The notes under the pieces are model-generated. The model saw only the letters and a list, made by a program, of their open reading frames with translations, was not told where the DNA came from and did not search any database. 59,477 bases of DNA, from the IMG/VR virus record IMGVR_UViG_3300022851_000003, one strand, 5' to 3'. Of this stretch, positions 348 through 55,690 are shown piece after piece (the stretch's first letter is position 1; each line of letters opens with the position of its first letter). This DNA comes from a virus. The translations under genes and the position numbers were made by a program.

Positions 348-1904
348 ATGGCAACTCAAACGCTCGAATTCGACGCACCATCCGGCCTGACGCTCAGTTG
401 CAAGCTGTTTGCGATTGGCTCGGATACTGTCGTTGCCACAGCATCGGCAACTGAAAAGACCAACGATCTGAATCGGTACAGTGTGGCTTATACCGACTTG
501 GCCGCTGGTGCTTATCGGCTCAATGCGTTTGTTGGTGCGGTCGGTGGGTTTGCGAATGAGTTGTTTGATACCCTGGCCGCGACGGGTACTTATTATCCGC
601 GATCTGAGACTGCACCGCTCGACGCAGCCGGAACACGCACAGCGATCGGTCTGGCGGCAGCAAACCTCGATACGCAATTGGCCGACATACCAACCGTCTC
701 GGAGTTTGATGCAAGGACATTGGCATCGGCTGATTACTTTGTGGTCGGTGACTACACCGCACCCGACAACGCAAGTATTACTGCGATCCTTGCCTCCACT
801 GACGAACTACAAACGAATCAAGGCAACTGGTTGACTGCTACGGGTTTCAGTACGCACTCAGCCGCCGATGTTGTCACCGCACTCGGCACCGGCTCGACGC
901 TGACCGATTGTGCAACTGCTGACGTTTCGGGACTCGCTACCGCCGCATCAATTGCAGGACTCAATGACTTTGACCCCGCAGTCGATATAGTCGCCCGTGT
1001 CACGTTGACCGATACCACGACCGCCAATACGGACATGCGAGGCACAGACAGTGCGTTGCTTGCAGCAAACTACACTGCACCGGACAACGATAGCATCACA
1101 GAAATCCTACTCGACACCGGCACCACGATTCCAGGCACGATCACTACCGCACAGGGCACGCTGACGAAACTCGAAACGGCACTCGAAGCTGACGGATCAA
1201 GTGGCTGGCAGTACACGACGCTGGCTCTGGAAAACGGTCCTGCCGATGGCGGCGGCGGTGGTGATGCGACACTCGCGAAGCAAGAGGAAATCCTAACCGC
1301 AGTAGGCAATGTGGCGAATGTGTCTCTTACCGGACCCAATGTCGTCAACGTCAACGTCACCAACATTGCGGACGATGCGGCTATCGAGAATGCCACGGTT
1401 CGCGTCTTCAAGGCCGGTTCGTCTGAATCGAAAACGACCGACAGCGAAGGAGACATCGAACCATTTGCACTCGCTTCTGCGACTTGGACACTGGCAATCG
1501 ACGCCGAGAACTTCGGGAGCTACGTTGATACCGCGTTCGTGGTGGGCGGTGACATCTCCGAGGAAGTGCAACTCACCGTCAGTTCAATCTCTCCACCGTC
1601 CGCTGCCGATAAGTCCAACGTCGGACTTCGTGTCATCACGCAGTTTGGCGTGCCTGTGAAGTTCCAGAACGTTCGCGTGGAAATCTTCGAGAACGAATTC
1701 GGCGCGTCGAGCTACGTCGTCAATGCGGACGTTCCTTTGGCGACCGATGCAAGCGGGAACGTGCAGTTTGAGGTACTCAAGTCAACCGAGTTCACCGACG
1801 GAGCGGGCGTGTACCAAGTCACCGTCGGCACCGGACGAGACGCCAAGACGTTTAAGTTCGCGGCACCCTCGACGCCAACCTATCAACTCACGCAGAAGAT
1901 CTAG
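348..1904 (+). CDS. putative virion structural protein (Thr/Ala/Asp-rich, fibre-like)
   Basis: 518-aa ORF in structural arc; composition typical of fibre or decoration proteins. Confidence 0.5.
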   Translation: MATQTLEFDAPSGLTLSCKLFAIGSDTVVATASATEKTNDLNRYSVAYTDLAAGAYRLNAFVGAVGGFANELFDTLAATGTYYPRSETAPLDAAGTRTAIGLAAANLDTQLADIPTVSEFDARTLASADYFVVGDYTAPDNASITAILASTDELQTNQGNWLTATGFSTHSAADVVTALGTGSTLTDCATADVSGLATAASIAGLNDFDPAVDIVARVTLTDTTTANTDMRGTDSALLAANYTAPDNDSITEILLDTGTTIPGTITTAQGTLTKLETALEADGSSGWQYTTLALENGPADGGGGGDATLAKQEEILTAVGNVANVSLTGPNVVNVNVTNIADDAAIENATVRVFKAGSSESKTTDSEGDIEPFALASATWTLAIDAENFGSYVDTAFVVGGDISEEVQLTVSSISPPSAADKSNVGLRVITQFGVPVKFQNVRVEIFENEFGASSYVVNADVPLATDASGNVQFEVLKSTEFTDGAGVYQVTVGTGRDAKTFKFAAPSTPTYQLTQKI

Positions 1905-3592: not shown

Positions 3593-4588
3593 GTGGACAA
3601 CGTACTTACGGGGATGGCAGTCATGGCATGTAATTTTTGCGGCAGTTTTGGGATCAACACGAAGTTCGGTTTCGCTCCCAGCGGCGCTAACGTGGACGCG
3701 ACGCTCGTGGCGGCCACCACTCGTGAAGAAATCCTCGTCGAGAACCTGAACTACAGCGATAGTGTGGTCGGTGGACGCGGCATCACCGGATGGATGGACG
3801 CTTCCTCGCTGAAACTACGCAACGGCCAAAGGCTTGTCTCCGGTGGGTTGATTATGGAAATCGGCCCGAACCAGATCGCACCCTGGCTCAGCGCCCTCGT
3901 TGGCAACAGCGCGGCGGCGGTTGCGAACGTGTCAACGACCAAGGAGAAGTGGGACGCGATTCCGTTCGACCTCTCGGTTGAACGCGACAACGTCGATCAC
4001 GGCTACCGCTACTGCGTTGTCAACCGCGCCGTCATTCGAGGGCGATCAAACCCAAGAGACCAACAAGGCCAAATCGTCCAGATGGCATTGAGTTTCCTGG
4101 GCGTCGAAGAGGAAGACATTACGTTCCCCGGCGCGTTGGCATTGCCGAGCGACGCGCAGTACCCATGGCTCCTCGGTGACGCGAGCCTAGATTACGGTGG
4201 TGAAACCTGCTCGCTGATCTCGTTCGACATCACAATCGAAAACATGCTCAAGCCTCTGTTCCGCAACCGACTGACCCCTGGTTGCTTTCGATCGCTCGGC
4301 CGAAAAATCACGATGGACTTTGCCGTTCCCTACGGGGCCGATTCGTACGCGGGATACATCGACGACAACTCGGCGGACGCGGCAGCCGCACTCACGTTCG
4401 CGTCGACCAACCTGCCCGCTGCCGTCTCGGATTACTCAACGATCTTCACGTTCCCCCAGACGCGTCGGATTGCCCACAACTACACGACCGCGAGCAAGGA
4501 CGAAATTCCGTTGCAAATGAAACTCCAGGCTTACATCAAGGGGTCTTCGCCAGCAATGACGATTGCGAACGTGATCTCGGCCGCGTAA
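3593..4588 (+). CDS. hypothetical virion protein
   Basis: 331-aa ORF in structural arc. Confidence 0.5.
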   Translation: MDNVLTGMAVMACNFCGSFGINTKFGFAPSGANVDATLVAATTREEILVENLNYSDSVVGGRGITGWMDASSLKLRNGQRLVSGGLIMEIGPNQIAPWLSALVGNSAAAVANVSTTKEKWDAIPFDLSVERDNVDHGYRYCVVNRAVIRGRSNPRDQQGQIVQMALSFLGVEEEDITFPGALALPSDAQYPWLLGDASLDYGGETCSLISFDITIENMLKPLFRNRLTPGCFRSLGRKITMDFAVPYGADSYAGYIDDNSADAAAALTFASTNLPAAVSDYSTIFTFPQTRRIAHNYTTASKDEIPLQMKLQAYIKGSSPAMTIANVISAA

Positions 4589-8171: not shown

Positions 8172-9184
8172 TGACAATGGGCGAGGGAACCGTATGGATG
8201 GTCGAGGCGAAGACGGGAGTCGGAGCAAGGGCCGCGTCGCAGGGCGAAGTCTTCCAGGCACACGCGTTGCTATTGGCCGGCAGTGATCCCGCGAGCGTAT
8301 CCAAGAACTCTAAGTGGTTCGACGTGGTCAATATGTCGATCAAAAGGGTCTGCCCCGGCGATCGAATGCCGGTTGCCAAAACACAACAAGGCCACTACAT
8401 CACCGTCGCCATGCAAGTCGGTCGTGCCATGTTCGCGAAGTTCGCCAAGAACGGCGAGTCGTGGGACGTGGTCGACTACTGGCAAGGCGAAGACCCATCT
8501 ATCTGCGACGAGCCAACGGTGGTGTTCGATTTCGATTCTAGTTGCCTTCAAGATGGTGCTGAAGTCGTGGCAAGCTACGACCCCGAGAACGATCAATACC
8601 GAGCCATCGCAACAGAATCGGCGATGCTTGGCCCGGCTTCGGATGTTACCGTCGTCGATGGTGCCGATCCTGGCATCCACTGGTCGACCGGCAACTGCGG
8701 TCAATTGGATTACGCCGTCCGAACAATCAAAGCATTCCGTTGCGGGGAAGACGAGGAAGCCGATCCTGATCCGAATTTGATCGAGAAAACCGCTCCATGG
8801 AACGGGACCATTGGCACGGTACTCGTCGGCGCTTCGATTACAACCAACGGTGCGGGGAATCCATGTTTGACATACACGACTGCCTACTCAATGATCTGCT
8901 CGGTGTCACAAGGGACACCAGATCCAATCGAGATCTGTGGACATCCTTGCTGCGATAAAGTAGTCTACTACAATCGCTACGCTTCCCCAGGAGCGATCCC
9001 AGCCGAGGCCACTCATGTCGGCCAATACACCGAAGGCTACGTGACTGATGAAGTAGCCGAACAATGCTTCCTGCCTGCCGATGCACCGGCTGGCTGGACT
9101 CAAGGATTCGCTGAGGAACTTGGTGCTGGGTTCACTCGAAACGCACTTCCCCCTGAATGCTGCCCACCCGAAGAAGGAGTTTAG
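8171..9184 (+). CDS. cysteine-rich hypothetical protein
   Basis: 337-aa ORF with clustered Cys (ICGHPCCDKV, PPECCPPEE). Confidence 0.5.
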   Translation: MTMGEGTVWMVEAKTGVGARAASQGEVFQAHALLLAGSDPASVSKNSKWFDVVNMSIKRVCPGDRMPVAKTQQGHYITVAMQVGRAMFAKFAKNGESWDVVDYWQGEDPSICDEPTVVFDFDSSCLQDGAEVVASYDPENDQYRAIATESAMLGPASDVTVVDGADPGIHWSTGNCGQLDYAVRTIKAFRCGEDEEADPDPNLIEKTAPWNGTIGTVLVGASITTNGAGNPCLTYTTAYSMICSVSQGTPDPIEICGHPCCDKVVYYNRYASPGAIPAEATHVGQYTEGYVTDEVAEQCFLPADAPAGWTQGFAEELGAGFTRNALPPECCPPEEGV

Positions 9185-11536
9185 ATGACCAGTCTAGTTC
9201 CCCAGTTCCGTAACGGCATTCCCTTGTTCGTTAAGGGCAAGCTGTCTTTTTGCGAGGAGGATTGTGATTGCCAGCCACCTAATCCGTGCGAGCCATGTTG
9301 TGGATTCATGTTCTGGCAAGACAACAAGCCAGGCGAACCTGAACCGGTAGTATGGGGCGAGTTCAATGCCAACGGCGATCTATTCGAGACATTGACATAC
9401 CCTGGTATATCAGACGCAACCGTCACAGAGACGATTACAATTGTCGTGCCAACTAAATTCAGTCGGTATATTTGCGAGGGGGAGGATATCGAAATTGAAC
9501 TGACCTACTCAACCGACTACATCCTTCCTAACATCGGTGCCGACAAGTATTTTCCTGACGTGGTTCCGGTTATCCAGTGGGATCGTTCGTGGACGGCAAA
9601 TTGCAATGTAATGCCCAACGGAGGTTGCGACCCTGGCGTCTCGATCGATGTAAACAAAAAGGGATTGATGGAGAACTGGGCTAACGATGTTGAGGAGATG
9701 TGGCTTCAGTTGACCTACACTGCTTGCTACCATGAGTACGAAAACGATCCGGCAGAACTGGTAGTAGGAAGCAGAAACTACGGCACCGCTCGGAAGTTGC
9801 GAGTCGTGCCATGCACGCCAGAAGTGACTTGCTGTCCTCATCCTTACGAGTGCGCTGATTGCTGTCTCTATTTGACGAGTTCTAAAATCCTCGCGGGCAT
9901 TCGCGGTTTGTCTGTCAGAGAGGTCATGAGCGATCCGGCCCTTGATATCAAGGAGGGCTTGGACAACATGGTAGATGAAGAGAGTATTATCTACTACAAA
10001 GAGGATCCAACAGGCGCGAGGATGTACGTGATTGCCACACCGGCTGGAGGAACAAAAAGGACAGTATGTCCGCTTGTTTCTGGGTTAGATGATCCAACGA
10101 ATGCGGGCAATTTCATTGAACTGGAAATTATCTACATCCCGTCGAGTCTTAATCCACGGATCGTGTGGAATCAAGAAATGTGCATTAGCTTTCACCCTGA
10201 CGTGTGGGAGTTAGCTGGAAGCTCCGACTCTGGGTGCGATGCGTTTGAAACAGTCTGTGTACCAACTGATCCCGATGATGTCGACGTACCTGGGTATAGC
10301 TGGACAGCCACTCTTTTACTGAAGTGCTATCCGTTCGGCGGTGCGCCACTAGACATAGCCAGAATGGCAGACATTGTCGTACAAATATCCGACCAAGACA
10401 CTAACCCAGACGGTCAGCCGTACACGTTTTTTGAGGGCATGGGAATCACGATTCCATTCGGATACTGCGGCGCAAACGACTACGAATGCTGCCCTGACAT
10501 AATCCCTGAATGCGAAGATTGTTGCATGATATTTGATTCAGCAGCCGGTCATATCTATGATTTGTCCGTTGATGGTGAAATAAATGCCACCATGCCTGTT
10601 TGTGATGATACCGGAGAATTGATTGGCTCACTAGGAATCTCTATTTTCGGGGACAAGCTATGCAAAGGTGCTGGCATGATTGTCAGTGTCGATAATGCCG
10701 GCGGCATGGAAATCGAAGTGTGCATTGAAGTCACTGGAGATTTCGAGGGGTTTGCTGATGAAGCACCGGAAGCTGACTCATTCCCTTCAATCAGCAAATT
10801 CTGCTGGGATCCCGCACCCGCAGTGATGAGTGTTACGAGAGTGGCTAAATGCAAGGATTTTTATGCGGGGGCTACGGTAGTAATTACGGCGGGTAATTCG
10901 CTAGCCACTTTTGAGTGGAAAGGATGCCCCGAGACAAGCTGCTGCTGCGAGGAATACGTTCCCTGCTGCGGCGGAAATTGCTATGTTCCTGATGCAACCA
11001 ACATTACACAACTGGAACTCATTTCTGACCTCGACGATGGCCGTCAAGAAATATACGATCAGAACGGTCCTAGTTTTTGGATCCATCCAGAATCAACGAT
11101 TGACGTGTCTTTGTGGAACTGTCCAGAAAAACTTGTGGATAAGCCGCGATGTGATTGGTATGTGCCGATCGAACAGCGGGCAGGAAGTGATACTGTATTT
11201 TTAACGGGCGTGTGGATTAATGGTATATTGGCGGCAGACTTAATCGTGGGCGCAGGAGCCAGCACAACACCACGGAACCCCCGATGGCAATTGCTAGGTC
11301 ACCTCCTGAACGCACCGCCCGGTGACGAAGATTGCTATGGAGAGATCACTGTGACCTCCCGAACCAATTCGCCTCCGGGAGATAGCGTTGCCACTTTTAC
11401 ATCTCAAGGCCCGTATCCATGGCCTACCGGAATGACGTGCTTTGATGATTGGGTCGTTTGGGAAGATGACCTTTTTGGCCCGCGTGTCTTGTTGTCGGAA
11501 TTCCCTGACGGTTTTTTTGATGGGCTGGCGATATGA
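9185..11536 (+). CDS. large cysteine-rich protein (putative virion or receptor-binding protein)
   Basis: 783-aa ORF with about 50 Cys in CC/CxC/CxxC clusters (CEEDCDCQPPNPCEPCC, ECCPDIIPECEDCC, CPETSCCCEEYVPCCGGNC). Confidence 0.55.
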   Translation: MTSLVPQFRNGIPLFVKGKLSFCEEDCDCQPPNPCEPCCGFMFWQDNKPGEPEPVVWGEFNANGDLFETLTYPGISDATVTETITIVVPTKFSRYICEGEDIEIELTYSTDYILPNIGADKYFPDVVPVIQWDRSWTANCNVMPNGGCDPGVSIDVNKKGLMENWANDVEEMWLQLTYTACYHEYENDPAELVVGSRNYGTARKLRVVPCTPEVTCCPHPYECADCCLYLTSSKILAGIRGLSVREVMSDPALDIKEGLDNMVDEESIIYYKEDPTGARMYVIATPAGGTKRTVCPLVSGLDDPTNAGNFIELEIIYIPSSLNPRIVWNQEMCISFHPDVWELAGSSDSGCDAFETVCVPTDPDDVDVPGYSWTATLLLKCYPFGGAPLDIARMADIVVQISDQDTNPDGQPYTFFEGMGITIPFGYCGANDYECCPDIIPECEDCCMIFDSAAGHIYDLSVDGEINATMPVCDDTGELIGSLGISIFGDKLCKGAGMIVSVDNAGGMEIEVCIEVTGDFEGFADEAPEADSFPSISKFCWDPAPAVMSVTRVAKCKDFYAGATVVITAGNSLATFEWKGCPETSCCCEEYVPCCGGNCYVPDATNITQLELISDLDDGRQEIYDQNGPSFWIHPESTIDVSLWNCPEKLVDKPRCDWYVPIEQRAGSDTVFLTGVWINGILAADLIVGAGASTTPRNPRWQLLGHLLNAPPGDEDCYGEITVTSRTNSPPGDSVATFTSQGPYPWPTGMTCFDDWVVWEDDLFGPRVLLSEFPDGFFDGLAI

Positions 11537-12690
11537 ATCCTTACATCGAAATGCGGCGAGCTGGCTACCTAATCACACGTCATTCCGACGATCAGATCCT
11601 CGTTCGACCAACGCCAGACGCCGAATGGCTTGAGTTTGCTAAAACACATAAACCCGAGATACTTGCATTCCTTCCCGCTAAGAAGGAAGACGAGGAGCGT
11701 GTTGAAGCCCAAGTCGCTAAGGCAATCAGCAAACCACTGGGCGGCGTCGGGACAGAACTGAAAAAGCTAATCCCCGATTGGTTTGAGAAGTCAGGCTGTG
11801 GTTGCAACGACTACGCACGAAAGCTCGATCGCAAGGGAGTTGATTGGTGCGACGAACACAGGGCCGAAATCGTTGAACACTTGGTCAAACAGGCCACCCA
11901 GACATTCCTTAAAGTCCTCGGTAAAGCATTCAACAAACTCGGCGCATCGGCGTTGCTTGCCACAGCGATTAGTCGATCGCGACTGCGGGACATCAAGGCT
12001 AACGGACTGCACCCTGCAAGCGACGCTCTCACGTTGGTCACGTCGCTGTCGACTACCTGCATTCGACGGCAATTGACATGCTTGCGAACGTGGCAATACA
12101 TGGGATTCCCGATCATTGCACAGCAAGTCGATCAAGAAGAAATCGACCAACTCGCTCCCCTGTTCCCCGACGTGACGTTCAAGATCGCGGAGGCAGTCCA
12201 CGAAAACAGGGTCACAATTCAATCACTGGCACAGGAAGCGAAAGAACAGCCCGTGCTAATCCTCAACGCTGACTTGGAAATTTATGCCGAGCAATCAATG
12301 TTCATTGAGCATTGGGCCGGTGGAACGGATTGCCGCATTGGCTTTCGCTGGAACTACGACGACATCCAATCTTGCACCCAAGAGCCCTGGGGTATTGATG
12401 CGGTGAGAATCACTCCGGCTATGGTGCCCCATATCGTCGAACCTACACTGCGACTCGGTTTCCCCGGTTGGGATTGGTGGTTGCCAACTCACTTGGAAAA
12501 AGCGGGGTTCCGTTTGTCCCGAGTGAACACTCCTGAACTCTTTCACCAGAACCATCCGACAACATGGGAGCCTCGCAGGAGCCTAGACGAACAAGCAAGG
12601 ATCGAAGCTGACTATGGGATCACAGTTGACGAGATGAGAGAGATGGCATCAAAGGACCGAAGCGGATGGAAGTGCAGTGTTACTTTTTGA
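11533..12690 (+). CDS. hypothetical protein co-operonic with sulfotransferase
   Basis: 385-aa ORF; overlaps both neighbours by a few nt. Confidence 0.5.
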   Translation: MNPYIEMRRAGYLITRHSDDQILVRPTPDAEWLEFAKTHKPEILAFLPAKKEDEERVEAQVAKAISKPLGGVGTELKKLIPDWFEKSGCGCNDYARKLDRKGVDWCDEHRAEIVEHLVKQATQTFLKVLGKAFNKLGASALLATAISRSRLRDIKANGLHPASDALTLVTSLSTTCIRRQLTCLRTWQYMGFPIIAQQVDQEEIDQLAPLFPDVTFKIAEAVHENRVTIQSLAQEAKEQPVLILNADLEIYAEQSMFIEHWAGGTDCRIGFRWNYDDIQSCTQEPWGIDAVRITPAMVPHIVEPTLRLGFPGWDWWLPTHLEKAGFRLSRVNTPELFHQNHPTTWEPRRSLDEQARIEADYGITVDEMREMASKDRSGWKCSVTF

Positions 12691-13291
12691 CCATTACCCG
12701 AAAGCCGCCGGAACGACGATCCGAACGTGGTTGCTCGAAAACTTCACCGACGCTTCCGTGGTATTCAACATCGACGACCTTGCACCGGGATTCACTAGCG
12801 GTGACTTCCGATCGCTTCCGAGGCACGAACGACACCGATTGAAATTGGTGATGGGACATGATGCCGGTGGACTCAGGAAAGAAATGCAGGAAGGCACCGT
12901 TTGCGTGACAGTCATCCGCGAACCAATCGGCCGACTTCTCAGTTTCTACCACTACGCCAAACAAACGCCGTTGATGGGAAACTTGCACGTTGATGCAAAT
13001 TACATGGACGTGACTTCGTATGCCGTCAAGCATGGCCTGACTCACGCCCTTGGGAAATACTACGGCAGCGTGGATCAAGTGCAGGCCAAATACGAGATAG
13101 TGGGTGACTCGGCAGACTTGCCTGAGTTTTGTAAACGGGTGCAAGATCGTATCTCGCTGCCCGTTGGGTTCACCGGCGAGCGACTGAACACGACACCGCA
13201 CCCGCAAGCAGCATCCTCAGAATTACAGAACCTATGCAAGTCGGATGTCGATTTCTACCAGGAATTGATGGGCCGCGTCGTCAATGCCTGA
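12677..13291 (+). CDS. sulfotransferase-family protein
   Basis: YPKAAGTT resembles the PAPS 5'-phosphosulfate-binding loop (PKxGTT); VIREPIGRLLSFY resembles the 3'-phosphate-binding motif (RxPxxRxxS). Confidence 0.6.
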   Translation: MLLFDHYPKAAGTTIRTWLLENFTDASVVFNIDDLAPGFTSGDFRSLPRHERHRLKLVMGHDAGGLRKEMQEGTVCVTVIREPIGRLLSFYHYAKQTPLMGNLHVDANYMDVTSYAVKHGLTHALGKYYGSVDQVQAKYEIVGDSADLPEFCKRVQDRISLPVGFTGERLNTTPHPQAASSELQNLCKSDVDFYQELMGRVVNA

Positions 13292-13386
13292 CAACGCCAG
13301 GAATTTCACGCTTAGTATTTTGATAGACCATTTGCGTTTGAGTGATACAATCACACCGAACTCCAGCACCTACCCAGAGAAGAACC

Positions 13387-14928
13387 ATGGATCCCAACAC
13401 TCGACAACAGCGTCCCAAGATCAAAAGAAAGATCGAAAACCCTGCTGACGTTGCAGAAGGCAGCAACATTTCGTCGCTCAGTCGGTTGATCGCCGCCAAC
13501 CCGATCACGTCCACGCCCGCTCGTGATGCGTCGGTGGCACGCACCAAGCGAACGATGGACAGTCTTCAAGGCGTGCAAGCCAATCTGGCATCTCCCACCT
13601 TCGGCATGGATACGCTCAACCGTGCTGGCAATTCCGCCAACACGCCGTCGATGATGGCACTCGGAACCGCACCGCTCGCTGTTCCCGGCCAAGCCGCCGG
13701 AGCGATGCAGTATGTCGCCAACCCGCGAAGCGCCGCCGGTGCGTTGGGCAGTACGGATCAATACAACATCACCACGCGGCGAGGTGCTTCAACTCCCGGT
13801 CCCGCAATGGGTAACCAAGGTGCGATCAGTGCCGCCTACGCAGCCCGCAATGCAAACCATGTCATGCCGTCGGTCCCTCAGGGTGACCGGGTTGCCCAGG
13901 GCATGAGCACAGATCGATTGTTCCCGAGCCCCGGCGATGCTGAAAACAAAGCCAAGTTTGAAGGGATCAAACTGGGTCGTGCCGCGCAGAAAGACAAGGC
14001 TCGCGACATGCGGATGCAACGGGCTCAGTGGCGAGGTGCGATCGGATACAACTCGCCCGCGATGGGTGGCGGTTACGCTGGTCGACGCAGCCCGATCTTT
14101 GACTCTGAGGGGAACATCGATCAGATGGCAACGACCGCGGCAAGTCAAATGGCGAGCAACCCGAAGCTCTCGGCACTGGCAACGCAGGCCAACCGCGAAC
14201 TCGGCCAAGGCGATCGGCGATTGAGCCAACTGGCGACACAGGAAGCGAACCGGGACGCATTGGCCCAGCTGCGTTTCGGACTCGACGAGACCCTTGGTAA
14301 CGCGAAGATCACCGACATGACGGAAGGTCGACGGATCGAAGAACTAAACATCGGAAATCAGTTCACGCTCGGGCAAGAACAGAATGCCAATCAGACTCAG
14401 ACGATTGAAAACCAGGGGACGTACCAAGCTGGTCAAATTGCCAACGACCAACGTCGCCTCTCTGACCTCGACGCACGGACTCAGATGGAACGCGATCGCA
14501 TGAAGTACGAAGAGGGAGAAACCGCGTCTGATCGGAAGATGCATATCAACGGAATGGGTGGATACGATGGCGAAAAGGCCGCCCGTGCCGCCATCCAGTT
14601 CGGTCAAATGCCGATCGATCAGCAAGACGCTTACACTTCCACGCTGGTTGGCCGCAGCCCAGAGGAACGTCAGGCAATGGCTTTGCAGATCCAACCGAGC
14701 CCTGAAGCCTACGCTCGCATGTACGAAGCCAATAAAGAAGACAGCACATGGTTTGGTGAGTCTCCCGAAGACAAGGCGATCCGCAAAGCACGTCGCGATG
14801 CCGGGCTCGCTGGCTTACGTGGGTACGGGATCAACCCCGAAGCGACCCCGGCCAACCCAACGCCCAAGCCGTTCCGAAATCCCATAACCTCAATGCCGAT
14901 GGTTATGAATCCGATGCTGAGCCTTTAG
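13387..14928 (+). CDS. Gln/Ala-rich hypothetical protein
   Basis: ORF 13342-14928; ATG at 13387 preceded by GAGAAG chosen over the upstream GTG. Confidence 0.45.
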   Translation: MDPNTRQQRPKIKRKIENPADVAEGSNISSLSRLIAANPITSTPARDASVARTKRTMDSLQGVQANLASPTFGMDTLNRAGNSANTPSMMALGTAPLAVPGQAAGAMQYVANPRSAAGALGSTDQYNITTRRGASTPGPAMGNQGAISAAYAARNANHVMPSVPQGDRVAQGMSTDRLFPSPGDAENKAKFEGIKLGRAAQKDKARDMRMQRAQWRGAIGYNSPAMGGGYAGRRSPIFDSEGNIDQMATTAASQMASNPKLSALATQANRELGQGDRRLSQLATQEANRDALAQLRFGLDETLGNAKITDMTEGRRIEELNIGNQFTLGQEQNANQTQTIENQGTYQAGQIANDQRRLSDLDARTQMERDRMKYEEGETASDRKMHINGMGGYDGEKAARAAIQFGQMPIDQQDAYTSTLVGRSPEERQAMALQIQPSPEAYARMYEANKEDSTWFGESPEDKAIRKARRDAGLAGLRGYGINPEATPANPTPKPFRNPITSMPMVMNPMLSL

Positions 14929-15136
14929 CTGCAAAGGCAATGATCGCCACACCGGTAGCAATAAACACTGCCGGTAGAGTTCGATTATGCAGTTGCACGA
15001 TAGCGAGCGAAGATCGATCCATGTTTGTGACGTACGAAGGACCGCTTAACGTCCTGCCGTCTTGCCGACAAGTGAAAGCGGCATAGAAAAAAACTAAGCC
15101 TGCTACCACCAAGAGAGCCCTCTTTACCATGTCCAT
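14903..15136 (-). CDS. candidate small two-helix membrane protein (antisense, moron-like)
   Basis: 77-aa ORF filling the gap between two plus genes; two hydrophobic helices; GGGAG 7 nt upstream of ATG. Confidence 0.3.
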   Translation of the reverse strand: MDMVKRALLVVAGLVFFYAAFTCRQDGRTLSGPSYVTNMDRSSLAIVQLHNRTLPAVFIATGVAIIAFAAKGSASDS

Positions 15137-18100
15137 CTACGATCTCCCTGTTGCCACTGCAACACGCCCCGGCCGTCTTCGTGGCCGATCGATCTATGAC
15201 AACGCCGGGTACGCTGCGCCGCCGATCGGTTTGGGCAATCTGCCCTCGCTTGCCGCCCCCACCATGCGAGTCGCGGGAGGGGCAGCATCGATTTACGATA
15301 CACCAAACCTGCCACCGATGCAGCCAGTTCCCGGTGCCGACCAGGCTGGACCCGCTGCGATGGGACCGCCAGTGGATCCCGACGATCCGTCTCTGTTCGC
15401 TCAAGCCCGCGACGTGGGACTCGGCGGATTGTCCATGCTTGGCAACTTACTCGACATTCCCGGTTCCATGGTTCGGGACGCTCTGACGTGGATCCCAGGC
15501 GGCATCGCGGCCCGCAATCCGTTAGACCAATTGCTCTCGCCGCTGTCCGACCAGAATCGCACGACGGGCGAGGAACTACTTCGCCTGGATGAGTGGCAAC
15601 CGGATTCGTGGTACGGATCGGTCGGTAAGTTCGGGGCTGGAATGGCTGCGGAAATTGCATTGGACCCCCTCACTTACATAACGCTCGGTGGAACCGCGCT
15701 GACGAAAACGGGTGGTCAACTGGCATCGCGGGCGGGAATGATGGGCGATGCCGCAAACGTCGCTAACCGCAAACTCGCAGCCCAAGCTGCCGAGGCCGGG
15801 ACCGACGCGGTGACCGTCGGCGCGAGAGAAGCACGGCAACTGGTCAATCCCCGCGAACTGGCGGCAAACCTCGATGAAGCCTCGCGTCGCAAGTTCCGTG
15901 ACGGAACGACCGGGGACATCCTCGACGATGCTGTCGAAACCGTTGCGCACACAGACGGCCACCCCATCGGCGTCGAAGAACTCGTGCGGTCCTACAACGG
16001 CATGAACGCTCGCGCCATCAAAGCCGGCGAGATGCCCGCTGCCAGTTTGTCCGACGACATGATCGATGCGTTCCGCACGGGAACCGCGTCGACCGATGAC
16101 CTGCTCGCTCAATCGAACATCCCGGCTGATTACCTCGACGAAGCGATCGGTGGAAACTTCCGGTTCAAGGTTCCGTTTGCGAACAAGCCGATCAACATCC
16201 CGTTCACCGACAGGGCCATCCCCGACGAATTCGTTTTCAACGACCTACGGTTGCCGATCCCTGGAAAAGCCCGCGAACTTGGCGGGTTGGGTGCGAGAGC
16301 AATTGGTGACCTTCCGATCCCGAAAACCGACAAGCGTATCCAAGACCTGATCCCTGATTTTGCGAGAGACCTGCCCGGCATGGCCGCTGACGGGCGCATC
16401 GAAGGGCGAACGATTGCGCGTGCGATGGACAAGACCGCCGATGCGGTGATGAATAACCGTCCAATGCTGACGGTGTCTTCGATGTTTGACCGAGTGGGTC
16501 GCGAAGCCAAGCACAAACTTTCCCGTGCCGCTGCCCGTGAATCGGCTCAACGTGGCGAAGAGATGGCTCGTGTTGTGCGAGAAGAAGCTGCGGGACCAAT
16601 GGCTGATGCTGACAAGAAAATGCAAGCCTACAGCCGAACCGAGGGCGTCACACAACAAGACGTACTGGACACTCAGTTCGATATTTTGGATCGCATGGAG
16701 GGAGCCTTGACCGACGATCAACTTAGTCCCGTTGCTGCTCAGTTCCAGCCTGCGATGGACTTCTTCACCAACGCCTTCCGCACGCAAGCCGATCAAGCAG
16801 AGGCGTTCGGCCAAAACCAACAACGGTTGCGTGAAGGCATCTCGTATGAAGTCCCCAAGGTCAACCCTGACGGAACCGAGGTTTTAGGCAAAGACGGAAA
16901 GCCCGAAATCGAAAAGGTTGTTCTGCAAAGTCCCATCGAGTATGTGCCTCGTAACCGGCAAAACGAATCGGGAGTAATGCGCCGCGTTGGCAATGCCATG
17001 AGCAAATCGGGACGGATGATTCAACCCGACGGATTCACCAAGGGCCGCGACGAGGCGATGCGACACCTTCGGACTTCGCAAATTCAACGCATGTCCCTTG
17101 ACAAAAAGTTCGCCGGTCGCGCTGACCGTGGAGTCCTGGGTGGAAAGCGATCGCGAGAACTCGCGGCAGGAAACACCGGGCAGTTTCCCGACACGGGCGT
17201 CATGGGAAGCTCGCTGCTTGAACGCGATACACCCGAGTGGGAACAAGCGTACTCCGCGTTCAAGAAAGCCTACCCGCCCGCAAAAGACTACATGCGACTG
17301 GCCGAACGTGGAGAACTCAAGGACATCAACGGGAACCTGGTCGAGTGGTCACCTGCGCTTGACGAAGCCCTCGACGACAAGCACCGGCAATTGTTCAGCA
17401 AGATCACACAGCTCGATCGCGCTCAGGTCGAGCGTGGTGTTCCGATGTTCGACACCAACGTCTTCCAGGCTGGATTGAACCGACTCGAGTCTGGCTACCA
17501 ATCCGCTGCCCAGGAACTCGGAACTCGAAAACTGCTATCCACGTCCGCACGATTGGCGAAACCACGTCCAGTTGCCGAACAGTCGGCCGCTCCCACAAGC
17601 AAACTTGCCTCCACCTCCGGTCGCAACATCGATTCAATGAACCTGCTTGGCGAGAACGGTGAGAACCTTGAACGTCTCGGACTCAATCACGATCGCGGAA
17701 AACAGAAACTACTGGGCGAATTGGCCGAACAGGGGCACGACATCGACGGCATGGCTGAATCGATCATGGCACCGAAGCGTGATAAAATTGCAACTGAGTT
17801 GACCGAACTGATCGCCAGGAACTCGGACACGCCCATTGCTGACCTGCAAGGACCGATTCGTGAGGCACTGGACAATGACCCCGATTCACTGCTGGCGGCG
17901 ATCACCACCGACGAAGCGATGCAGGAGCGGATCGGGAAGTTGGTTGACAAGTACACCAACGTCGAGGCCAAACCCGATGACATCTTGAAGAAATTCGAGA
18001 TCGACGCGGACTTAGGCAACGACATGATGGCCGTCAACACTCGGTTTTCCACGCCCGAGGAAATCAAAGCGTTCACCGAAGCGTTAGACGCATTCACCAA

Positions 18101-19625
18101 TATGTTCAAGACCAACGTCACCGCCGCGTTCCCCTCGTTCCATACGCGGAACTTGTTCTCGGCCATGATGCAAAACGCACTCAACGGCGTGACCGACACC
18201 TCCGCTACGCGATTGCGAGATCGATTCTTCAAGCCGTACTCGGATGCTCGAAAGGTAATCAATGGCGAGGTTCTTGCGGACGCGAATCAACTACCAGGAA
18301 TGGAAAAACTCTCACCCGAGGAAGCCACCGAAAAGTTCCGAGATGAAATCTTTGCCCAGAAAATCATTGATGCCACGGGCGACCACAACGACATCCCCGG
18401 CCTACCATCGGGTGGCGCGATCGATGCTCGGCCCGGTCAATCGCGTGGTCGTGCGGCGAACTTGCCTGAAAGCAAAGGGTGGGACTTGGTTGAAAAGATT
18501 CCATTTGCTAGGAACTTTGCCCGCAACGTTCGCGAGGCGTCATTGCCACCCAAAAAAACCCGATGGCGGGACACGTTCAACCCGCTCGAAAGTTCGGCCG
18601 TTCGTGGCACACGCGAAGGCACTGTGAAGTACGGCGGTGAGCGAATCGGTCGCGCCCTCGGTAACGAGATTGAATCCACGGTTCGGATCGCCCCGTACAT
18701 TGCCTTTCGTCGACAAGGTTTCACTGCATCAGAAGCCGCCAAAAAAGTTAAATCACTTCAGGTGGACTACAACGACCTAACCAGAACAGAACGCAAAGTG
18801 ATGCGGCGTGCTGCCCCTTTTTATTCGTTCAATAAAGGAGCCACCAAATACCTCGCGGGTGAATTATCCACTCGCCCCGGCGGCCCTGTGGCGATGACGA
18901 TCAAAGCCGCCGAGAACGCATCGGGCAACGACCCCGGCACGCCCGAGTACATTCGCGACGGACTCAACATTCCGCTTGGTGGTGCGGCAGAGGACGGATC
19001 ACGGAACTACCTGACTGGTGCCGGCCTCATGCACGAGCCTCCTGCTCAACTGCTTGGTAATAACATCCAAGAGACATTCTACAACGCAGCCAGCATGGCG
19101 CATCCGATCCCCAAAGCGTTGATCGAATACATCACCGACGAGTCCCTGTTCCTGCGGGACGGCAAGGGAGGCGGACGCGACCTGGACGACATCGACCCGC
19201 CCGTTGGCGGCACACTCCGTAATATCGGCCAATTCACGGGACTACTGGACAAGGAACGCCGTTCCCCCATTGACCTGCCGATCCCATTCGAGAAAGAGTT
19301 TGAACTGGCTGTCGCGAATTCGCCCGCTGCCCGATACCTGTCTCAGATTCGCAAGGCGACGGACAATCGAAAGAACCCTCTCGAAAAGCTGTTAAACGGC
19401 CTAACTGGATTCAATGTCGCCACGGTCGAACCGAATGACCGCGATGCGGTCCTGCGAGAACAACTGGAGCAACTTCTGCGAGACATGGGCGGTCGAACCT
19501 TCAGCCAAGCGTACATGCCCGATACGACACTCGCTGAAATGGGAATGTCGCAGCAAGACCAAGTCGCGAAGATCAAGGAAGCCCTCCGTCAGATCAACGC
19601 ACGACGACGAAACAGCAGCGATTGA
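15129..19625 (+). CDS. very large virion-associated protein (possibly tape-measure or internal protein)
   Basis: 1498-aa uninterrupted ORF ending the structural arc; no catalytic motif recognised. Confidence 0.6.
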   Translation: MSIYDLPVATATRPGRLRGRSIYDNAGYAAPPIGLGNLPSLAAPTMRVAGGAASIYDTPNLPPMQPVPGADQAGPAAMGPPVDPDDPSLFAQARDVGLGGLSMLGNLLDIPGSMVRDALTWIPGGIAARNPLDQLLSPLSDQNRTTGEELLRLDEWQPDSWYGSVGKFGAGMAAEIALDPLTYITLGGTALTKTGGQLASRAGMMGDAANVANRKLAAQAAEAGTDAVTVGAREARQLVNPRELAANLDEASRRKFRDGTTGDILDDAVETVAHTDGHPIGVEELVRSYNGMNARAIKAGEMPAASLSDDMIDAFRTGTASTDDLLAQSNIPADYLDEAIGGNFRFKVPFANKPINIPFTDRAIPDEFVFNDLRLPIPGKARELGGLGARAIGDLPIPKTDKRIQDLIPDFARDLPGMAADGRIEGRTIARAMDKTADAVMNNRPMLTVSSMFDRVGREAKHKLSRAAARESAQRGEEMARVVREEAAGPMADADKKMQAYSRTEGVTQQDVLDTQFDILDRMEGALTDDQLSPVAAQFQPAMDFFTNAFRTQADQAEAFGQNQQRLREGISYEVPKVNPDGTEVLGKDGKPEIEKVVLQSPIEYVPRNRQNESGVMRRVGNAMSKSGRMIQPDGFTKGRDEAMRHLRTSQIQRMSLDKKFAGRADRGVLGGKRSRELAAGNTGQFPDTGVMGSSLLERDTPEWEQAYSAFKKAYPPAKDYMRLAERGELKDINGNLVEWSPALDEALDDKHRQLFSKITQLDRAQVERGVPMFDTNVFQAGLNRLESGYQSAAQELGTRKLLSTSARLAKPRPVAEQSAAPTSKLASTSGRNIDSMNLLGENGENLERLGLNHDRGKQKLLGELAEQGHDIDGMAESIMAPKRDKIATELTELIARNSDTPIADLQGPIREALDNDPDSLLAAITTDEAMQERIGKLVDKYTNVEAKPDDILKKFEIDADLGNDMMAVNTRFSTPEEIKAFTEALDAFTNMFKTNVTAAFPSFHTRNLFSAMMQNALNGVTDTSATRLRDRFFKPYSDARKVINGEVLADANQLPGMEKLSPEEATEKFRDEIFAQKIIDATGDHNDIPGLPSGGAIDARPGQSRGRAANLPESKGWDLVEKIPFARNFARNVREASLPPKKTRWRDTFNPLESSAVRGTREGTVKYGGERIGRALGNEIESTVRIAPYIAFRRQGFTASEAAKKVKSLQVDYNDLTRTERKVMRRAAPFYSFNKGATKYLAGELSTRPGGPVAMTIKAAENASGNDPGTPEYIRDGLNIPLGGAAEDGSRNYLTGAGLMHEPPAQLLGNNIQETFYNAASMAHPIPKALIEYITDESLFLRDGKGGGRDLDDIDPPVGGTLRNIGQFTGLLDKERRSPIDLPIPFEKEFELAVANSPAARYLSQIRKATDNRKNPLEKLLNGLTGFNVATVEPNDRDAVLREQLEQLLRDMGGRTFSQAYMPDTTLAEMGMSQQDQVAKIKEALRQINARRRNSSD

Positions 19626-19630
19626 TCGAA

Positions 19631-19668
19631 CGTGTTACCCTGCGCCGCGCAGGGTAATTACTTGTTAG
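19631..19668. repeat. GC-rich palindromic element, copy 1
   Basis: cgtg TTACCCTGCGCcGCGCAGGGTAA ttacttgtta between convergent stops at 19625 and 19665; near-identical inverted copy at 43347-43384. Confidence 0.6.
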
Positions 19669-19874
19669 GACGACGACCGCCGACCTAGTTTGTAAATCCA
19701 CACGAATGGCCGCGACAGCAACCAAAACGCAGCATAAATCGGCCATCCGAAAATGACCGCCTCGTCCGCGAGTCCCTCGGCACCATCGCGGATTCCATCG
19801 GTACGACCAGCCGCGAACGCGCATCCAGCGACATAGATCACGAACGCGACAACGCACCACCAAAACGTGTTCAT
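19665..19874 (-). CDS. small membrane protein
   Basis: ORF 19665-19934; internal ATG (MNTFWWCVVAFVIYVAG) gives a two-helix peptide. Confidence 0.4.
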   Translation of the reverse strand: MNTFWWCVVAFVIYVAGCAFAAGRTDGIRDGAEGLADEAVIFGWPIYAAFWLLSRPFVWIYKLGRRSSS

Positions 19875-20089
19875 CGCCCCACACCTGCGTCGGCCTGCTC
19901 TACCGCTTCCATGTATCTCGCTGCTTCGCCGCAAACTATCAACGCTCGATGGAATGCGTGAGCCTGTTCGATTGTCTCAAACTTTGCCACTACCCTCGGT
20001 GAATGATTCGGCGATGACTCGCAAGTAATGAACGACGGTGCTCCGGCCACATCGAGCATCTTGATTGCGTCTACTGCTTCCTGACTCAT
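19871..20089 (-). CDS. hypothetical protein
   Basis: 72-aa ORF overlapping downstream start by 4 nt. Confidence 0.35.
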   Translation of the reverse strand: MSQEAVDAIKMLDVAGAPSFITCESSPNHSPRVVAKFETIEQAHAFHRALIVCGEAARYMEAVEQADAGVGR

Positions 20090-20183
20090 GGTCGCGATCC
20101 TAACAAGCCGTTGAAAAAGACGACGGCTTTAAGTTGGTTGGTTTGGTTTTACGTCTTCTCGCCGTCGCTTTTTAACGGCAGCG

Positions 20184-20519
20184 TTACGACGACTCTCGCC
20201 TTTGATTGCACGCATAACAAACGTCGCCCATGTGCATCGTCTTTCGCCCGCAATGCTTACAGCGTATCTCACGGAACTGCCGCAAGTTTCTGACGTTGTC
20301 GTTCATTGGTGGCTCAGGTGCTTCTAGCATCGCTGCAATCGCCTTGCGAATTGCCGTGGATTGTTTTACGCCGTGCTCATCGCACCACGCCTCAAGCGGC
20401 TGGCGAAGATCGCCGAGCCGCACTGTTGAAAAGACTGTCAACGAGGTTGTCTTTCCGATCGTTGAAAGCGTCAGCAACATTCGCGTACTAACGCTCACGT
20501 TCCTGGGTGTTCGTTTCAC
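20184..20519 (-). CDS. putative DNA-binding regulator with C-terminal zinc ribbon
   Basis: Segment LRQPLEAWCDEHGVKQSTAIRKAIAAMLE followed by CKHCGRK...CYAC. Confidence 0.4.
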   Translation of the reverse strand: MKRTPRNVSVSTRMLLTLSTIGKTTSLTVFSTVRLGDLRQPLEAWCDEHGVKQSTAIRKAIAAMLEAPEPPMNDNVRNLRQFREIRCKHCGRKTMHMGDVCYACNQRRESS

Positions 20520-21042: not shown

Positions 21043-21909
21043 TTACACGAAACACATGCCGAGCGTGCATTGCTGCACCTTTTCTGCCGATTCGTCGTAG
21101 TCAATATCCGCTTCGGCTAGAGGCACTCGACTGTGATGCAAGAAAACACCGCCTTGCTCGTCCGCTTCGCGAACTTCGCTGTCCGTTTCAATGGCTTTCT
21201 GCCATTGCTCGGGGTAGTTGTCACGGATGTCACGCCATTCGGCGTTGCGCTTGTGCGGGCACATCCAGCAAGACGACTGCTTAGGCAACGGCCAACCAAA
21301 CTCTTTAATGATCGTTAAACATGAGTGAGTGTTTAGCATCAAATCGACCAACGGACAAACCGTTGTCCATCGACCTTCGGTCTTGTGATGCAAGCCCTTC
21401 CATCGCTTCTTTTCTTCGATTCCAAAGCCTAGCCAACGCGTTCCGCCCTTGATTCCTTTGGCCCGCAAGTGTCGATCAACGACACGTTTCTTCCATTCGT
21501 TACTGCAATATGTTTTCAACTTTCCGGTCTGTGTGAACACAGGGAGCAACAGATCACCGTTGCCGGAATACATGTCGACCGTGGCTAGATCGTGGCTTGC
21601 CACTTCGACAGGACATCCGAGTTCGGTCATCATCGGTTGAGTGTACTTTTCGAGGTATTCCCATGTCGTCGGATTTTCTCGGCTGGTGTCTGCCATTACG
21701 ACAACATCAGGCTTCGGCAAAACGCCTTTGGCTATCATGATGCACATCGCAACGGTTTGGCGACCTCCACCGTAGTTGAAGACCAGAGAACAATTTGTTG
21801 CTGCGGATTTGCCGATTAAGTTTATTGGTTTGGTCATAGTTTTTTCTCGCGATGGCGGGACAATTCGAGCGTTACCACGACCTACGTGGCCTTCAAAAAT
21901 ACGATCCAA
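21043..21909 (-). CDS. PAPS-reductase-family protein (ATP pyrophosphatase fold)
   Basis: VVMADTSRENPTTWEYL matches the DTGxxFPET core of the PAPS reductase family; degenerate PP-loop FNYGGGRQT; Cys pair CWMCPHKR. Confidence 0.6.
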   Translation of the reverse strand: MDRIFEGHVGRGNARIVPPSREKTMTKPINLIGKSAATNCSLVFNYGGGRQTVAMCIMIAKGVLPKPDVVVMADTSRENPTTWEYLEKYTQPMMTELGCPVEVASHDLATVDMYSGNGDLLLPVFTQTGKLKTYCSNEWKKRVVDRHLRAKGIKGGTRWLGFGIEEKKRWKGLHHKTEGRWTTVCPLVDLMLNTHSCLTIIKEFGWPLPKQSSCWMCPHKRNAEWRDIRDNYPEQWQKAIETDSEVREADEQGGVFLHHSRVPLAEADIDYDESAEKVQQCTLGMCFV

Positions 21910-42575: not shown

Positions 42576-42901
42576 AAGTTGGCGACCAAGTGGAAGTGAT
42601 AGACGAAGGGCTGGCGATGCTTCGCCGATTGTGTCCGGGGATGCCCCCGAACCATCGCGGAAGGATCGAGGAAATCGACGGCGAAGATGGCAAAGCACAA
42701 CGGACGGCGATACATCGGGATCGAAGTGAACCCGGAGTATTGCGAGATTGCAGAGAAACGCTTAGCGCAACAAGTGCTGTTCTAGGTCAGGGGAACGCTG
42801 CCGATAAAAAGCGACGGCGAGAAAACGTAACCATCACCAACCAACCCAAAGCCGTCGTCTTTTTCAACGGCTTGTTACGATCGCGACCAGTAAAACCATG
42901 A
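42563..42901 (+). CDS. hypothetical protein (reading frame uncertain)
   Basis: 112-aa ORF; a methyltransferase-like remnant is encoded in another frame inside it. Confidence 0.3.
   Translation: MAELKVGDQVEVIDEGLAMLRRLCPGMPPNHRGRIEEIDGEDGKAQRTAIHRDRSEPGVLRDCRETLSATSAVLGQGNAADKKRRRENVTITNQPKAVVFFNGLLRSRPVKP
42603..42785 (+). pseudogene. C-terminal remnant of an N6/N4 DNA methyltransferase
   Basis: 60-codon open frame ending GSRKSTAKMAKHNGRRYIGIEVNPEYCEIAEKRLAQQVLF, resembling the FxGSGTT...GRxFIGIE C-terminus of amino-methyltransferases; no N-terminal half. Confidence 0.4.
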
Positions 42902-43407: not shown

Positions 43408-43617
43408 ATGCCTCTTCCCGATCTGACGACTCGCCAGCAATCCACTCTCATCAACAAGGTGGATCACAACTGCCGTCGAAATGGCAAGAGATTCCTGCGT
43501 GATCTCGGCGGAACTGGGCACGCCGCTGAACTCGACGCGCAATTACAAATCGCCCGTAACAATCCCGATGCGGTGAAAGCCGCCGAACTCTTTACGAAGG
43601 AGAAAGATCGGAAATGA
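43408..43617 (+). CDS. small protein co-transcribed with serine recombinase
   Basis: 69-aa ORF; stop overlaps recombinase start. Confidence 0.4.
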   Translation: MPLPDLTTRQQSTLINKVDHNCRRNGKRFLRDLGGTGHAAELDAQLQIARNNPDAVKAAELFTKEKDRK

Positions 43618-55469: not shown

Positions 55470-55690
55470 TCCAACTCCCTTGGCAAATCATTGCCGCGTC
55501 CATTGCGTTGTTCGGCCTGCATTTAATCATCGGCTACCTCCGCCGGACCAACTGCGACGAGCGGATCGAAGTTGCCAAGCGGCAACAGCACCGCGATTCG
55601 ATAAGCATCTATCGCGAAGCCTATCTGGCGGGATGGGTCCACGGGGACCAGGACTCAACCAAACTCACAGAGGAGATCGACCGTGCGTGA
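55466..55690 (+). CDS. small membrane protein (holin- or spanin-like candidate)
   Basis: 74 aa with N-terminal helix WQIIAASIALFGLHLIIGYL and charged C-terminus. Confidence 0.45.
   Translation: MIQLPWQIIAASIALFGLHLIIGYLRRTNCDERIEVAKRQQHRDSISIYREAYLAGWVHGDQDSTKLTEEIDRA

Follow-up and report, generated by a model that had tools for sequence, protein, structure and literature searches.

What does a sulfotransferase gene do among the virion genes of a phage? The question is raised by a viral sequence of 59,477 nucleotides (IMG/VR record IMGVR_UViG_3300022851_000003; the whole stretch analysed is referred to as the window), in which a short open reading frame (ORF) encoding a 204-residue protein, ST204, overlaps the end of a longer one encoding a 385-residue protein, ORF385. 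ST204 can be assigned with high confidence, on its sequence and its predicted structure, to the sulfotransferases that use 3′-phosphoadenosine 5′-phosphosulfate (PAPS), and there is a strong case that ORF385 and ST204 are functionally paired. The complete proposal, in which the pair is a two-enzyme decoration cassette that draws on host PAPS and acts on the virion, is tentative and falls a little short of an even chance. The features of ST204 are as follows.

12677..13291, plus strand: ST204, 204 aa, GTG start; predicted compact PAPS-dependent sulfotransferase
nt 12698-12718, plus strand: 5′-phosphosulfate-binding (5′-PSB) loop P8-K9-A-A-G-T-T of ST204, a PAPS-binding signature
nt 12857-12859, plus strand: His61 of ST204, putative catalytic base, aligned with a histidine of heparan sulfate 2-O-sulfotransferase (HS2ST)
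nt 12908-12949, plus strand: 3′-phosphate-binding (3′-PB) element T78..R81..S89..Y91 of ST204, a PAPS-binding signature

An earlier note on this DNA, made by reading the sequence, had recognized a sulfotransferase at 12677-13291 from two PAPS-binding signatures and had suggested a search against sulfotransferase profiles. When ST204 (N-terminus MLLFDHYPKAAGTT; internal segment VTVIREPIGRLLSFY) is searched by itself, the direct hits are weak but concordant, and as sub-threshold matches they are suggestive: Pfam Sulfotransfer_2 (PF03567) at E=0.063 and 13.8 bits, below its 22-bit gathering cut-off; the Pfam Gal-3-O-sulfotransferase family (PF06990) at E=0.25 and 10.6 bits, not reaching its cut-off of 27; and phrog_3347 (‘Galactose-3-O-sulfotransferase’) at a non-significant E=0.022. 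A search of NCBIfam gives no match. The transitive and profile matches are strong. With a profile of three sequences, exhaustive searching by HMMER collects 2,198 sulfotransferase relatives of ST204 at E<=1e-3; PF03567 is matched individually by 54 of 60 aligned relatives at E<=1e-3 (best 1.3e-12), and a profile of the 60 sequences aligns with HS2ST (3f5f/4ndz) over nearly the whole length at E=1.6e-11. By these profiles, ST204 belongs to a divergent subfamily within or beside PF03567.

The profile alignment to HS2ST pairs PKcgGts with PKTASTS, GH with HGH, and vlRePvdRivS with VIRDPIERLVS. In ST204 itself, the 5′-PSB loop P8-K9-A-A-G12-T-T is aligned on PKTASTS, and the 3′-PB segment VIREPIGRLLSFY is aligned on VIRDPIERLVSYY of HS2ST, with R81, P83, and S89 invariant. 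His61 is aligned on the second His of ‘HGH’, a histidine that is catalytic in HS2ST, and is the putative catalytic base of ST204. At a mean column identity of 29%, the columns invariant in the 60 sequences are F4, H6, P8, K9, G12, H61, R81, P83, S89, and G143; both signatures are thereby borne out, as they include invariant residues of the 5′-PSB loop and of the 3′-PB element.

AlphaFold2 with the 60-sequence alignment gives a model of ST204 with a predicted local distance difference test score (pLDDT) of 95.5 and a predicted template modelling score of 0.90 (an earlier model from a three-sequence alignment, with pLDDT 44, was unusable). The model has the sulfotransferase fold. In a Foldseek search, its top match in the PDB is HS2ST with 3′-phosphoadenosine 5′-phosphate (PAP), essentially all significant matches are PAPS sulfotransferases, and the structural neighbours are carbohydrate sulfotransferases. 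The earlier note had held that a lack of any profile match together with a fold unfit for PAPS would speak against a sulfotransferase; profile matches and a high-confidence model of that fold are what was obtained.

ST204 shares with HS2ST and PF03567 the fold, the PKxxxT/S 5′-PSB motif, the R...S 3′-PB motif, and the His at the catalytic position. Identity to HS2ST is 16-17%, and the acceptor-binding elaborations of HS2ST, whose catalytic domain has ~290 aa as against 204 aa, are largely missing. ST204 further differs from HS2ST in being soluble, phage-encoded, and dependent on or fused to an unrelated partner domain. Its nearest relatives have 203-216 aa and the next, cellular tier 250-265 aa, and ST204 looks like a stripped-down core of the cellular enzymes. 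This short length for the family and the sub-threshold Pfam score might be taken as signs of a decayed, non-catalytic relic, or of no real gene at all. We regard this as extremely improbable, since the PAPS-binding and catalytic positions are all invariant in an alignment of such low mean identity, the protein is conserved at 33-46% identity in several phage lineages with start and overlap kept, and the pLDDT is high. The antisense ORF at 12680-13207 is a shadow ORF.

The gene does not stand alone. The features that link it to its upstream neighbour are as follows.

11533..12690, plus strand: ORF385, 385 aa, ATG start; partner protein directly upstream of ST204
aa 1-~160 of ORF385, plus strand: N-terminal region with a GCGC...WC segment; a separate module in contig L007
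aa ~165-385 of ORF385, nt ~12025-12690, plus strand: conserved C-terminal domain of the partner family, ~220 aa
12677..12690, plus strand: 14-nt overlap of the ORF385 stop and the ST204 GTG start, preceded by a Shine–Dalgarno-like GGATGGAAG
11533..11536, plus strand: ATGA stop/start overlap of a gene for a 783-aa Cys-rich protein and ORF385, seen in the sequence

An overlap with the upstream 385-aa ORF had been claimed in the earlier note and is found to be 14 nt long; together with the Shine–Dalgarno-like GGATGGAAG, it points to translational coupling of ORF385 and ST204. That note had left the upstream ORF as one of unknown function and missed that the ORF is a near-obligate partner of this sulfotransferase subfamily. 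The nearest non-identical relative of ST204, P0002 (45% identity), lies on a 66-kb phage contig (L001), where the gene upstream encodes 288 aa and is 49% identical to ORF385 residues 155-384 (232 aa); the same GTG start and 14-nt overlap recur there with a clear GAGGGAGGG Shine–Dalgarno sequence. Partner and sulfotransferase genes also overlap by 14 nt in P0003/L092, where they follow a tail module of the tape-measure type (97-kb contig from a genome assembly), and in P0005/L126, and by 4 nt in P0004/L093 and P0009/L128 (ATGA in the latter). A single 559-aa protein, P0007, unites the two by fusion in L008, where its gene closes a siphovirus-type tail module; residues 96-324 are the partner domain (hhalign probability 99.9%, E=9e-37), and residues 345-542 are the sulfotransferase. 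The partner is thus found directly upstream in the window, L001-4, L092, L093, L126, L128, and L016, besides the fusion, and 7 of the 8 close subfamily members examined are linked to it by overlap or fusion. Natural fusions of this kind argue for a substrate common to both proteins.

The pair appears to be inherited independently of its surroundings. By tblastn, partner and sulfotransferase are the only genes common to the window and L001, L092, L008, and L016; the two travel together from one phage backbone to another, unrelated one. Conversely, L007 carries the tail genes of the window but has partner, glycosyltransferase (GT)-like, and FkbM genes in place of partner and sulfotransferase. 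In every architecture examined (window, L001, L007, L008, L092, and L128), the cassette lies within virion-gene modules.

A profile search for the partner domain yields 91 clusters at 90% identity, mostly of ~220 aa. No Pfam domain is found in these 91 members, and the sole name given by the sources is ‘hypothetical protein’. An alignment of 53 sequences contains invariant W187, N245, D247, R272, G287, D289, G309, D314, H338, and H341 (ORF385 numbering), and the family motifs are LN(S/A)D(I/L)E, WGIDAF, GxPxWDYWxP, and HxxH. Polar residues so invariant at ~35% mean identity suggest that the partner domain is an enzyme, probably a metal-dependent one. The domain has no match in Pfam, PHROGs, or NCBIfam, nor among PDB sequence profiles (searched with 6 and with 53 sequences); one of the 53 members gave GT64 at E=0.034, the rest having no Pfam or PDB-sequence match, and tblastn of three members against 50,697 deposited phage records found nothing. 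Within ORF385, the N-terminal GCGC...WC segment at window 11728-11901 (aa 66-123) is homologous to L007 6932-7108, with 35% identity over 60 aa at E=1e-4. In L007, a syntenic contig, this sequence belongs to a 420-aa protein whose own gene directly precedes that of the partner. ORF385 therefore joins two modules that elsewhere have a gene each.

The partner is the constant element of its loci, and the second enzyme is exchangeable. IMG/VR contains at least 80 partner loci. Directly downstream of the partner, a GT2/DUF6492-like gene (with or without Methyltransf_24) is found in 36 of 72 non-redundant viral loci; an FkbM-family methyltransferase gene follows in 29 of the 72. Fusions of the partner to FkbM (L048, E=6e-17; L060, E=8e-20), to Glycos_transf_2 (L037, E=6e-7), and, below threshold, to Methyltransf_24 (L042) were also detected. 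The cellular loci that encode ST204 relatives (Acidobacteriota, Verrucomicrobiae, Rhizomicrobium, and Paraburkholderia) include the partner domain in 0 of 27 cases, and FkbM-type methyltransferases are encoded in 8 of the 27; the cellular homologs P0016 and P0020 are on short contigs with uninformative context. The partner has so far been seen on phage-type contigs only. Separately, a partner-family protein in L017 has a weak Erv1/Alr sulfhydryl-oxidase match in an N-terminal extension (E=5e-4).

These neighbours bear on the possibility that ST204 sulfates a protein side chain (Tyr, Ser, or Thr) of the virion or the host, with the partner as a recruiting adaptor or a hydroxylating primer. We consider this quite unlikely: the sequence profile groups ST204 with Sulfotransfer_2 and HS2ST and not with TPST, the ten invariant polar or aromatic residues of the partner suggest catalysis over scaffolding, and the GT2/DUF6492-like neighbours and the GT2 fusion point to sugars.

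In the mechanism that we propose instead, ORF385 and ST204 would be co-translated from a late polycistronic mRNA as a two-enzyme decoration cassette, of which ST204 would be the PAPS-dependent O-sulfotransferase. Lys9 of the 5′-PSB loop and Arg81 and Ser89 of the 3′-PB element would hold host-made PAPS, and His61 would deprotonate an acceptor hydroxyl, resulting in a sulfate ester and PAP. Choice of the acceptor would be supplied by the C-terminal domain of ORF385, because ST204 amounts to a bare core and the enzyme that accompanies the partner changes from one phage to another. The N-x-D, R, D, D, and H-x-x-H residues of the partner resemble a metal-dependent transferase site, and the partner may be, at a guess, a glycosyltransferase of GT-A-like type, which would install the sugar that ST204 sulfates or present it to the enzyme. 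It would then serve as a constant ‘primer’, and the sulfotransferase, the FkbM or Methyltransf_24 enzyme, or the GT2-like enzyme would serve as an exchangeable decoration.

The likeliest acceptor would be a virion component, such as a glycan borne by a fibre or by another protein of the particle surface, giving a negatively charged particle, because the enzymes are soluble, are made with the virion proteins, and are encoded directly after a hypervariable gene resembling those of fibres or receptor-binding proteins (RBPs). That the acceptor is of glycan type is slightly favoured; that the virion is the target is possible, at somewhat less than an even chance. The computations show a sulfotransferase with a conserved active site, genes that are coupled, a partner inherited with the sulfotransferase or fused to it, and a cassette that is mobile; what we infer in this scheme is the chemistry of the partner, the acceptor, and the late expression. 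The broadest claim, that particles carry sulfated glycans or residues by means of a mobile two-gene cassette whose partner belongs to a new family priming virion proteins for interchangeable decorations, is doubtful for now.

The setting of the cassette was examined over the whole phage genome. The window has an exact direct terminal repeat of 127 nt (1-127 = 59351-59477). It is the complete genome of a phage, ~59.35 kb long and either assembled as a circle or bearing direct terminal repeats; identical or ~99% identical contigs are present in three IMG/VR datasets (L089-L091). The late arc runs on the plus strand from ~48.5 kb across the genome ends to 19.6 kb. The relevant features, with one from the early block, are as follows.

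48583-51441, plus strand: 952-aa ORF at the head of the late arc, with a LAGLIDADG_3 domain at aa 766-815
51838-53994, plus strand: P22-like portal, late arc
55683-56927, plus strand: trypsin-like protease, late arc
58338-59357, plus strand: fibre-like 339-aa protein, late arc
348-1904, plus strand: CarboxypepD_reg-domain protein, late arc
3593-4588, plus strand: Phage_tube_2 protein, late arc, followed by several large unannotated genes
9185..11536, plus strand: 783-aa Cys-rich protein with a hypervariable C-terminus, directly upstream of ORF385
19634..19658, plus strand: strong intrinsic-terminator-like hairpin with an 11-bp stem, after a 1498-aa gene, ending the late unit that contains the cassette
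21043-21909, minus strand: PAPS-reductase-family ORF (phrog_424, E=2e-34), in an early block with RecT

The hairpin is the sole strong, long-stem terminator site in a scan of 9000-20500. Promoter-like matches are no commoner than in shuffled sequence, and no significant promoter or terminator flanks the cassette itself. Given this and the ATGA and 14-nt overlaps, the cassette is considered to be embedded in the late transcription unit without signals of its own; two further large genes lie downstream of it within the same unit. The gene for the 783-aa protein and the cassette form a block of lower G+C content (GC; 0.50-0.53, versus 0.56-0.60 in adjoining late genes) that was apparently acquired. 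The maximum hydropathy over 19 residues is 1.16 in ORF385 and 0.85 in ST204, so no transmembrane segment is predicted, and both proteins are expected to be soluble and cytoplasmic.

The 783-aa protein contains 43 Cys residues and is encoded at a GC of 0.497, versus 0.56-0.60 in flanking late genes. Knots of the CC..EC.DCC type recur along it, at aa 23 (CEEDCDCQPPNPCEPCC), 216 (CCPHPYECADCC), 435 (CCPDIIPECEDCC), and ~600 (CCCEEYVPCCGGNC), which suggests that it is built of four repeated Cys modules. So many Cys knots are unusual in a protein assembled in the cytoplasm. The 783-aa protein has no database match, and neither it nor the 1498-aa protein on the other flank has a match in reference phages. 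When the window is compared with the 99.3% identical L090, the 8.7 kb examined contain 52 substitutions, of which 44 lie at 10545-11476, in the C-terminal part of the 783-aa gene, and 38 of these 44 are at codon positions 1 and 2. This pattern suggests a receptor-binding domain under diversifying selection, and the protein is a probable receptor-binding or distal virion protein. A diversity-generating retroelement was considered as the source of the variation at 10545-11476 and rejected, as no template repeat is present. In the near-identical contig L091, a clean deletion of 2,430 bp (window 9260-11689) has removed nearly the whole 783-aa gene, and its first ~25 codons are fused in frame to ~codon 53 of ORF385 (protein P0151), leaving the partner domain and the sulfotransferase intact. 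The first ~52 residues of ORF385 are therefore dispensable.

The PAPS-reductase-family ORF raises the question of PAPS supply. The ORF contains a GGGRQT PP-loop-like motif and a C-terminal CWMCPH motif, has no Pfam match at E<=0.01 and no PDB-sequence match, and scores ~5 bits in phmmer against Escherichia coli CysH and CysD. Probably it is an enzyme of the ATP-pyrophosphatase type that is specific to phages and has nothing to do with sulfation. The earlier note had mentioned it with the reservation that it might serve another pathway, a doubt that proved sound: a link to the sulfotransferase was rejected, as the ORF lies in an opposite-strand early block past the late terminator, is unlike CysH or CysD, and a true PAPS reductase would use up PAPS instead of supplying it. 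A tblastn search of the window with E. coli CysC, CysN, CysD, and CysH gave only E>0.5, and no genes for sulfur assimilation or PAPS synthesis were detected in the phage by this search.

The presence of that ORF might nonetheless be read as a sign that the pair acts on hypermodified phage DNA or on a small metabolite, as an ‘auxiliary metabolic gene’ (AMG). Viromics papers do count phage sulfotransferases as putative AMGs (PMC8290583; PMC10580990), and phage glycosyltransferases can hypermodify DNA, according to Pyle et al. (2024) as cited in PMC12619734. We nevertheless think such a role very unlikely, since the cassette is in virion-gene modules throughout the architectures examined and never in those for replication or nucleotide metabolism, the PAPS-reductase-like ORF is separately encoded and unrelated to CysH and CysD, and sulfur-assimilation genes are absent.

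Several observations weigh against the proposed virion-decoration cassette. The PF03567 score of ST204 alone is below the gathering cut-off, as described above. P0008 (L094, a 3-kb contig) has no partner in the 776 nt visible upstream. For the partner, hhalign of its profile against the GT2/DUF6492-like neighbours gives 18.5, versus 17.6-18.0 for negative controls; in that control-level alignment, LNSDIE is laid on the DSD motif of the neighbour. Against the FkbM neighbour cluster, too, the partner profile scores no better than controls, and the GT-A-like assignment is a guess that profile scores do not support. L091 has lost the 783-aa gene and kept the cassette, so the 783-aa protein cannot be the sole acceptor. 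Finally, in podoviruses of the P22 and epsilon15 types, receptor-modifying (seroconversion) genes follow the tailspike gene, near the RBP.

This last arrangement leads to the alternative that the cassette modifies a host envelope polysaccharide (O-antigen, exopolysaccharide, or capsule), maybe the receptor of the adjacent RBP, and thereby blocks superinfection or the trapping of progeny on debris, as in seroconversion. On the cytoplasmic side, the partner would add or recognize a sugar of a lipid-linked repeat unit, and this sugar would be sulfated by ST204. Enzymes of the Sulfotransfer_2 and Gal-3-O-sulfotransferase types act on glycans, and the 8 of 27 cellular loci with FkbM beside the sulfotransferase recall polysaccharide-decorating clusters. 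The cassette comes directly after a hypervariable RBP-like gene in the lower-GC, apparently acquired block, hops between phage backbones like a moron, and is here carried by a phage with a P22-like portal; L092, on its genome-assembly contig, may be a prophage. Seroconversion cassettes such as P22 gtrABC, the epsilon15 post-tailspike genes, and Oac acetyltransferases encode membrane proteins and have their own expression in lysogens. ORF385-ST204 is like them as a set of mobile glycan-modifying genes beside an RBP or tailspike gene of podoviruses, but unlike the Gtr and Oac cassettes its products are soluble, and it lies inside a late operon to which it is translationally coupled. It has no promoter or terminator of its own, late-only expression would leave little time for surface remodelling, neither protein has a membrane segment of the kind in GtrA, GtrB, or Oac-type conversion proteins, and if the partner were an ordinary enzyme of a polysaccharide pathway, its absence from each of the 27 cellular sulfotransferase loci would be surprising. 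We hold modification of the host glycan to be a serious but rather unlikely explanation.

How much of this is new? Annotated viral sulfotransferases, which share the PAPS-type fold with ST204 (BFVD matches, E 1e-6 to 1e-3), include those of Synechococcus phages ACG-2014f and S-SCSM1, Xanthomonas phage FoX4, Ralstonia phage phiRSL1, and giant viruses, as well as phrog_3347. Their similarity to ST204 is below the reach of tblastn (50,697 phage records), and the ST204 subfamily is defined by partner coupling and virion-gene position. ST204 alone is, by sequence, a new and divergent member of the viral sulfotransferases already annotated. Phage sulfotransferases have been called putative AMGs whose function ‘remains unclear’ (PMC10580990; PMC8290583), and no phage-encoded sulfotransferase with a demonstrated role was found in the literature.

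The closest precedent for the proposal comes from mycobacteriophages. Two papers (PMC12363180 and PMC12619734, both citing Freeman et al., 2023) describe phage-encoded glycosylation of the capsid and tail-tube proteins of the phages themselves, with Che8 gp110, Corndog gp38, and Myrna as examples. As presented there, phage transferases decorate virion proteins of the same phage in the cytoplasm, as proposed here from genes only; no sulfation is reported there, the glycosyltransferases are recognizable as such, and they have no sequence kinship to ORF385 or ST204. Beyond the mycobacteriophages, no other experimentally established precedent for phage-directed virion decoration was found in the literature. 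Bacterial cellular PAPS enzymes that sulfate glycolipids, lipopolysaccharide, and peptides likewise resemble the proposed role of ST204 in performing cytoplasmic sulfation, but lack the partner domain and are structurally further from ST204 than heparan sulfate (HS) sulfotransferases are.

What is new, then, is the near-obligate coupling or fusion of a sulfotransferase to a domain not described before and observed on phage-type contigs alone, the modular swap of sulfotransferase, methyltransferase, and glycosyltransferase around this partner, and the placement among virion genes. Together these suggest that phages can sulfate a virion or cell-surface molecule. The role of virome sulfotransferases becomes testable as that of a defined two-protein unit at a late-operon site by a hypervariable RBP-like gene, and the partner, a sizeable unannotated family, seems to lie at the centre of a modular system for decoration with sulfate, methyl, or sugar groups. 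If the virion is the target, a fixed negative surface charge would affect adsorption, aggregation, interactions with mucus and exopolysaccharide, and immune recognition; if a host glycan is the target, sulfation would be a new chemistry for receptor masking. Should virions prove to be sulfated, their surface chemistry would count as a modular trait that is exchanged horizontally, and phage biology would have its first case of sulfation.

Some further observations concern the rest of the genome. The LAGLIDADG_3 segment of the 952-aa ORF (48583-51441) is possibly an intein or homing-endonuclease insertion, and the ORF has weak similarity to genes of other phages annotated as methylase or portal. 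The fibre-like 339-aa gene (58338-59357) has a low GC at third codon positions (0.456). The C-terminal peptide of its product, NLPT(S/T)DP.VAGA(L/V)W(N/D)DSGTLKIS.G*, encoded at window 59286-59348, is shared with L001 8771-8833 (69% identity over 29 aa), where it belongs to a 578-aa protein encoded directly upstream of the cassette. This motif was considered as an acceptor tag and set aside as not general, being present in 2 of 72 partner loci. An inverted repeat of 54 nt with 94% complementarity (20089-20142 and 42836-42889; ~98 nt at 91%) flanks the whole 22.7-kb minus-strand early and replication block, and a resolvase/invertase-type serine recombinase (43614-44438) is encoded ~730 nt beyond its right arm. 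Each arm holds a hairpin of its own, so that the two may act as bidirectional terminators and not as sites of inversion.

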